A DNA stretch of 63,259 bases, from NCBI RefSeq assembly GCF_964213995.1, contig NW_027590578.1, forward strand, positions 186,001-249,259, read 5' to 3'. Origin of the DNA: Mustelus asterias. Taxonomy: Eukaryota. The notes under the pieces are model-generated. The model searched no databases. It was not told the DNA's origin and was given only the letters and a program-made list of their open reading frames with translations. A program made the translations under genes and the position numbers. Shown piece by piece: positions 40,437 through 41,354 of the stretch; within the stretch, counting starts at the first letter, position 1; each line of letters begins with the position of its first letter.

Positions 40437-41354
40437 GTAGGTTTCATTAATATCTGTAAATGTTGCATTTGATTTATTATTGTCACATGTATTGGGATAC
40501 AGGGAAAGGTATTGTTTCTTGCACACTGTACAGTCAAAGCATACTGTTCGTAGAGAAGGAAAGGAGAGAATGCAGAATTTAGTGTTACAGTATTAGCTAG
40601 GGTGTAGAGAAAGATCAACTTAATGCGAGGTAGGTCCATTCAAAAGTCTGACAGCAGCAGGGAAGAAGCTGTTCTTGAGTCGGTTGGTACATGACCTCAG
40701 ACTTTTGTATCTTTTTCCCGACGGAAGAAGGTGGAAGAGAGAATGTCCAGGGTGTGTGGGGTCCTTAATTATGCTGGCTGCTTTTCCCCGAGGCAGCGGG
40801 AAGTGTAGACAGAGTCAATGGATGGGAGGCTGGTTTGAGTGATGGATTGGGCTACATTCACAACCATTTGTAGTTTGCCTACAGATCTTTGGACGCTAAG
40901 GGGCAATTTACCATGGCTAATCCCCCTAACCTCCAGATCTTTGGACACTAAAGGGCAATTTACATAGCCAAATCCCCAAACCTCCTTCATATCTTTTTCC
41001 TCCCACAGTCCAAAGTTGTGCGGGTTAGGTGGATTGACCATGATAAAACAAATTGCCCCTTAGCGTCAGGGGGGGTTAGCAGGATAAATGCGTGGGGTGA
41101 CAGCAATGGGCCCTGGGTGGGATTGTGGTCGGTGCAGACTCGATGGGCCAAATGGCCTCCTTCTGCACTGCAGGGATTCTATGATTCTATGAAAAGTCTG
41201 AAGGCAGCAGGGAAGAGGCTGTAAAGGGTGTCTCCAAAGAATCGAGGTTGTCGTCGCTTTAACTGGCCGGGTTTTTAGGCATAATTCCGGCTGCAATAAG
41301 TATTCACTGGGGATAACCTGAAGAGAGGTTTGTGCCAAGGGGCGCGGCACTGTG

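Follow-up and report, generated by a model that had tools for sequence, protein, structure and literature searches.

Every family-B J segment in a J cluster of Mustelus asterias is flanked by arrays of a 52-bp repeat, and the sites at which this J is missing or doubled are best explained by misaligned homologous crossover between these arrays. We assign this reading a probability of roughly 0.7. It makes the gains and losses of the J a passive by-product of the repeat rather than a device for tuning the repertoire. The window, that is, the whole stretch of DNA that was analysed, comprises the 63,259 nucleotides of C546:186001-249259, C546 being the label used here for its contig. The process would have started with one ancient event that set the J between two arrays before this cluster and its counterpart on a second contig split. 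Tandem duplication would then have spread the resulting cassette, and wherever a left array paired with a right one, be it through unequal crossover, single-strand annealing or slippage, the B segment would have been dropped or doubled. Pairing would sometimes have taken place between different units, in which case more than one J could go.

A 12-bp-spacer RSS, an FGxG-type motif and a splice donor characterise 73 J segments of the window, and further Js are found upstream. This count excludes the J at 16519, which carries FES where FGS is expected, and our J numbering is not that of an earlier note on the same DNA. A Pfam C1-set constant exon follows the J cluster (Table 1), and another one is present on the contig C71. 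Searching the PDB with the constant exon led to generic antibody constant domains, with a named shark C-alpha ortholog not among the matches; the exon is likely C-alpha. Because of the number of Js, their 12-bp-spacer RSS and the layout, the window can be regarded as a putative TCR-alpha J cluster of the shark type.

The second J-C cluster lies on C71 at about 18.37-18.42 Mb (18370000-18420000), is colinear with C546 and is 76-93% identical to it in shared DNA. The two constant exons (54162-54470 on C546) have an identity of 84% on the DNA level and 72% on the protein level. We treat the C71 cluster as a probable paralogue and not as an allele, because of this range of identity, the divergence of the constant exons and the two upstream probes from C546 that found no C71 match among the scored candidates. 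The pair may go back to a duplication of the locus or consist of two haplotypes of very deep divergence. A search of the assembly with the B cassette, in which 40 of 46 candidates were scored, yielded no near-identical second haplotype of the window and placed B on C546 and C71 only. Upstream of the window on C546, from about -42400 to -8200 in window numbering, there is a second expanded J zone, in which the 52-bp arrays all have the opposite orientation and some of them adjoin the intron of an F-family J.

Table 1. Positions of the features discussed in the text, in window numbering
Feature	Position	Strand	Remarks
Empty site 2	310..447	+	2.6 units; between LINE-like fragment and D-family J; +1 bp from register
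Empty site 3	5047..5317	+	5.2 units; between LINE-like fragment and C-family J; 0 bp off register
Filled counterpart of the 310 site	9311..9731	+	B cassette 9475-9607
Comparator of the earlier note for 5047	16266..16666	+	B cassette 16483-16615; J with FES for FGS
Control junction that removed an E-family J	16950..16960	+	few bases of microhomology, no 52-bp repeat
Upstream neighbour J, family A	40346..40436	+	12-spacer RSS
Left flank of empty site 1, ~410-bp dispersed repeat	40467..40877	.	92-95% matches on many contigs
Empty site 1	40878..40997	+	2.25 repeat units; B absent; +3 bp from whole-unit register
Right flank of empty site 1, 5'-truncated tRNA-SINE	40998..41192	+	inverted relative to array
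Downstream neighbour J, family A	41327..41418	+	12-spacer RSS
Filled comparison site	41859..42356	+	left array 41859-42176, 133-bp B cassette 42177-42309, right unit 42310-42356
Full-length tRNA-SINE	51630..51965 (end approximate)	+	holds the 52-bp unit internally, imperfect and ~1.8-fold; array source, by alignment
Ig C1-set constant exon core	54177..54395	+	Pfam C1-set, E 2.2e-06; downstream of J cluster
12.8-unit array inside reversed SINE	58474..59138	-	still flanked by SINE tail and head

All 24 family-B Js of the window sit in one cassette of 130-133 bp between direct arrays of the 52-bp unit. The earlier note had described such flanking on both sides by the unit or part of it, and this holds for 24 of 24, with the junctions that it quoted. 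Two additional B cassettes just upstream of the window and seven on C71 are likewise flanked on both sides by the unit or part of it. The cassette is made up of 9 bp, nonamer, spacer, heptamer, the 60-bp J, the donor and about 30 bp of intron. Its junctions are constant, as the left array stops at unit phase 47 and the right array begins at phase 1. Since all copies on both contigs have these two identical junctions, the flanking of B points to a single event that was later amplified and not to 24 events. Outside the clusters on C546 and C71 our search found no B cassette (39 matches; 40 of 46 candidates scored). The cassette tree, built from 31 rows without an interrupted copy on C71 and one member of a doublet, resolves few of its branches. 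In the interrupted copy (C71:18398345-18399004) a B-family J is broken by an insertion of about 650 bp, whose 97.8% match to another copy indicates that a young mobile element hit this segment. The distance between repeat and RSS nonamer (window 2060, 2296, 2676, 448) differs among families and amounts to 9 bp in B, 6-7 bp in C, none in E, where the repeat is the 410-bp one, and about 26 bp in D; the close spacings probably remain from deletions that stopped short of the RSS.

Our catalogue of array sites has 43 entries, of which C546 contributes 29 and C71 contributes 14; one B is present at 29 sites, 12 sites are empty and two hold two Bs. The empty sites are nine on C71 and the three window sites for which the earlier note had reported a missing J. 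The latter stand as described: the arrays at 40878-40997, 310-447 and 5047-5317 are in register, contain none of five B marker motifs and have the same left and right flanks as filled sites. Since five of the C71 empties make one clade (98/94), the 12 empty sites correspond to about 7-8 events. B is found in eight left-right flank combinations, seven of which also occur empty. All empty arrays except one (11 of 12) lie within 5 bp of a whole-unit register, and the twelfth has a 12-bp deletion that is also seen in a filled sister. Such in-register empties exclude random deletions; arrays that never held a B would look alike.

The two doubled sites, C71:18406401-18406712 and C71:18410438-18410750, consist of B, a single 47-48-bp unit and B again, and are the reciprocal product of the deletion. 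Because both have variants in common, they likely represent one doubling event that was copied with a larger block. The proposal that the repeat also duplicates single Js is therefore borne out on C71, by these two sites, and not within the window. What is seen of unequal crossover, then, are in-register breakpoints inside direct repeats and a reciprocal duplication on the second contig.

The cleanest of the three window cases is the site at 310. Within its array, left-type unit variants give way to right-type ones at about 414-424, which gives the position of the crossover. The right flank is 97.6% identical to that of the filled unit at 9311, and these two are 94.0 and 95.6% identical to a third, filled unit. 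As the 310 flank is closer to 9311 than either is to the third unit, one loss gives the shorter history.

At 40878 the corresponding switch falls between about 40939 and 40963. The array opens with a variant that occurs in 9 of 16 left arrays and in 0 of 16 right arrays, and it closes with right-type variants. Its left flank, a dispersed repeat that is likely the reversed 3' end of a LINE, clusters with two units, at 23515 and 30246 (92/73), and the right flank joins the units at 41859, 43207 and 45509 (93/93), all tree supports quoted for site flanks being below the starred threshold. The nearest full-length flanks are 93% and 91% identical, and the matching site on C71 holds a B. A crossover within the last unit would fit this arrangement, and its partners may have been different units. 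What speaks against a loss is the array length of 2.25 units, exactly the length that the commonest filled structure would have had before insertion. The array is also the most diverged one in the window (87%). Aligning units with and without the J, as the earlier note had asked, thus placed the breakpoints inside the 52-bp repeats at 310 and 40878, and flank identities and flank trees make loss, the direction it had assumed, likely at both sites.

The third case, 5047, is different in kind. Its left flank has a deletion of about 10 bp in common with B-D units that is absent from the unit at 16268, and its C-family J matches the C-family J at 2330. Because of these two features, the site may have lost three Js (B, D, B) rather than one. 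The deletion also makes the earlier comparator, the J at 16519, doubtful; with its altered motif, this J is likely non-functional. The assumption of one J per event is weakened by the possible triple loss at 5047 as well as by the flanks of 40878, which have different nearest relatives. Judged from such comparisons, the filled state appears to be ancestral at 310 and 40878, whereas the picture is mixed at 5047 and three C71 contexts have no outgroup. Decayed orphan J relics are present on another chromosome (C9, about 18.757 Mb), where a B/G-like J with its native spacer precedes an H/D-like J; these relics, whose 3' flank is native, are too distant to serve for polarity.

Is the loss of B more frequent than that of other Js? 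A hand tally gives 7-8 losses at 43 sites for B versus one isolated loss at 64 sites of families A, C, E, G, H and I (Fisher p 0.003-0.007), a post hoc count over sites that are related and not independent, with families D and F left out. Within C546 alone, the numbers are 3/29 versus 1/50 (p 0.14). The repeat is not the only route, as might have been concluded before, since the junction at 16954, from which an E-family J has gone, shows a few bases of microhomology and lacks the 52-bp unit. Distance matrices of the flanks are uncoupled across the B site (rho 0.14, -0.05) and also inside the 410-bp repeat (Mantel rho -0.27, 0.37). Because of this latter decoupling, the arrays are not the sole exchange points, and we do not claim a unique hotspot. 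In a cluster with several modes of reshuffling, the arrays probably raise the turnover of B. RAG-mediated germline joining was rejected as a mechanism: RSS and J leave together, and the junctions lie in the arrays and not at the border between heptamer and coding sequence.

Could the history have run in the other direction? If B were a cassette that moves into arrays, through gene conversion on the flanking homology or through re-integration of an excised circle, the empty sites would at least partly be ancestral. The breadth of flank combinations, nearly all of them also found empty, would be expected in that case, and the phase 47/phase 1 junctions look as if the cassette had been set into one array with a loss of 5 bp. 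Two contexts that are filled in the window and empty on C71, as well as the pre-insertion length of the 40878 array, point the same way. Insertion would, however, need at least two gains where one loss suffices at 310 and 40878, the chimeric variants inside empty arrays fit crossover, and stepwise crossovers can yield every flank combination. Moreover, B is confined to the two clusters in our search although arrays of at least 1.8 units are frequent elsewhere, so that we consider this direction unlikely. The same degree of doubt applies to a broader proposal, in which the SINE minisatellite has turned one TCR J into a plug-in cassette that drops from, doubles in and is copied into like-oriented 52-bp arrays. 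This would explain the eight flank contexts, and it would have copies diversify at CDR3 codons and germline J content vary among living sharks.

The earlier note had seen in the minisatellite a way of tuning the germline J repertoire. On such a selective account, arrays are kept since changes in J copy number are useful, and presence or absence segregates as an adaptive polymorphism. B copies indeed differ mostly at CDR3 codons (pN 0.24, pS 0.05), and with 21 distinct peptides among 25 extra copies add distinct ones; multi-unit arrays of at least 1.8 units are about 20-fold denser in B zones (5.5 and 7.3 per 10 kb) than in control DNA (0.26). Family A, though, shows a similar CDR3 pattern without flanking arrays (pN 0.33, pS 0.04; 10 distinct full-length among 19), replacement variants, when pooled, are not in significant excess (25 to 4, p 0.07), the array density reflects the duplication of a few ancestral arrays, and a single loss takes only one of about 26 similar Js. 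We therefore regard selected tuning as very improbable. Both A and B Js vary at the first and second CDR3 codon positions, with framework codons nearly invariant even at silent sites, and the CDR3 pattern hints at selection for diverse Js, not for repeat-driven losses. Least probable of all is that the assembler skipped B between the repeats. The contig is small (249 kb) and repeat-rich, and positions 40969-40989 have no exact contig cover in four of four public runs, a gap that proves nothing by itself. Nevertheless, the flanks of 40878 deviate by 7-10% from every filled paralogue and carry private variants, the skipped part would be 133 bp of non-repeat DNA, and the 12 empty and two doubled sites are spread over two contigs, with the five-member clade on C71 among them. 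A 43-bp word across the left junction, unique in both clusters, also has exact matches in two runs from one sample and in a run from another. The public data are assembled contigs only (23 runs, best share 0.51), of which four runs from one organism, at most three samples and one study were compared; their short contigs include none that bridges the empty site at 40878, which says nothing on collapse or polymorphism. On sequence grounds, an assembly collapse is unlikely.

The 52-bp minisatellite that underlies the crossover reading derives from a tRNA-SINE, in agreement with the earlier suggestion of a SINE origin. The unit aligns to the internal part of the full SINE at 51630 and to a SINE copy on C71, and an array of 12.8 units is still located inside a SINE. 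Head-attached arrays are also present at control loci, and on C71 a full copy of the right-flank SINE precedes an A-family J. Across the genome the motif is very common: 38 control stretches of 10 kb each (380 kb) contain it 132 times and arrays of at least 1.8 units 10 times, five of these arrays in one stretch. Head and tail counts from this control DNA were not used, as the tail probe is insensitive. Rfam returned no match for the SINE, which may be HE1, a V-SINE. Compared by description and not by sequence, it resembles HE1 of sharks and rays in its tRNA-derived head, central domain, LINE-like tail and very high copy number, but the arrays in the J zone lack the head and tail of the SINE. 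A table of PMC3747384 lists HE1 for sharks. A dense run of young SINE copies is found at C74:1000001-1010000, where five carry arrays of 12-24 units within 10 kb.

Non-allelic homologous recombination, or unequal crossing-over between direct repeats, is known to produce reciprocal deletions and duplications with in-register breakpoints. The B sites share with it the direct repeats, the register of the breakpoints and the reciprocal products. They differ in their very small scale, with a cassette of 133 bp and 47-500 bp of homology, and in the use of a minisatellite rather than low-copy repeats. The mechanism is ordinary, a small-scale case of a known process, and the natural series of zero, one and two copies is unusually clean. 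The growth of TCR-alpha loci with at least 100 Js is usually put down to unspecified tandem duplication. Here, one J family reveals the breakpoints, the host repeat and the two reciprocal products, and it does so in two copies of a locus.

As far as the consulted parts of these papers go, related observations come from several vertebrates. In squamates, satellites with tandem arrays arise from an internal part of a SINE (PMC10702118); the present SINE is that of a shark, a word that the consulted part of that paper does not contain, and its arrays bracket a functional gene segment. Catfish TRAJ comprises more than 100 J segments in subgroups, and one fish carries a tandem duplication of TRBJ13-14 that another lacks (PMC8656973). 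This birth and death resembles our cluster in the number and subgrouping of Js, in pseudogenes and in differences in copy number, while the same part gives no repeat-defined cassette with a single J and no mapped breakpoints. For sharks, many alpha Js have been described, with a full germline sequence lacking (PMC5931798, in part), and the alpha/delta complex has been mapped, in the portion of PMC12227049 consulted without J-level detail or a second alpha locus. The corresponding portion of PMC5499810 contains nothing on the 52-bp repeat. A literature search that left subscription journals largely and supplements wholly outside its reach gave no report of repeat-flanked J cassettes in sharks.

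With products about 180 bp apart, the sites offer a simple PCR-testable system for germline J turnover in sharks. Segregation within a species would make J content a polymorphic trait with a transposon remnant as its driver, and fixed sites would form a clean record of neutral birth and death. Two further rearrangements in the window deserve mention. A near-identical tandem duplication of 2.7 kb at 24654-30300 contains B, C, E, a pseudo-J and A, with eight versus nine units in the right arrays, and may be recent or an assembly duplicate. Upstream of a normal B site, at 45252-45508, an extra array of four units is accompanied by a short stretch in which the end of the 410-bp repeat is duplicated.
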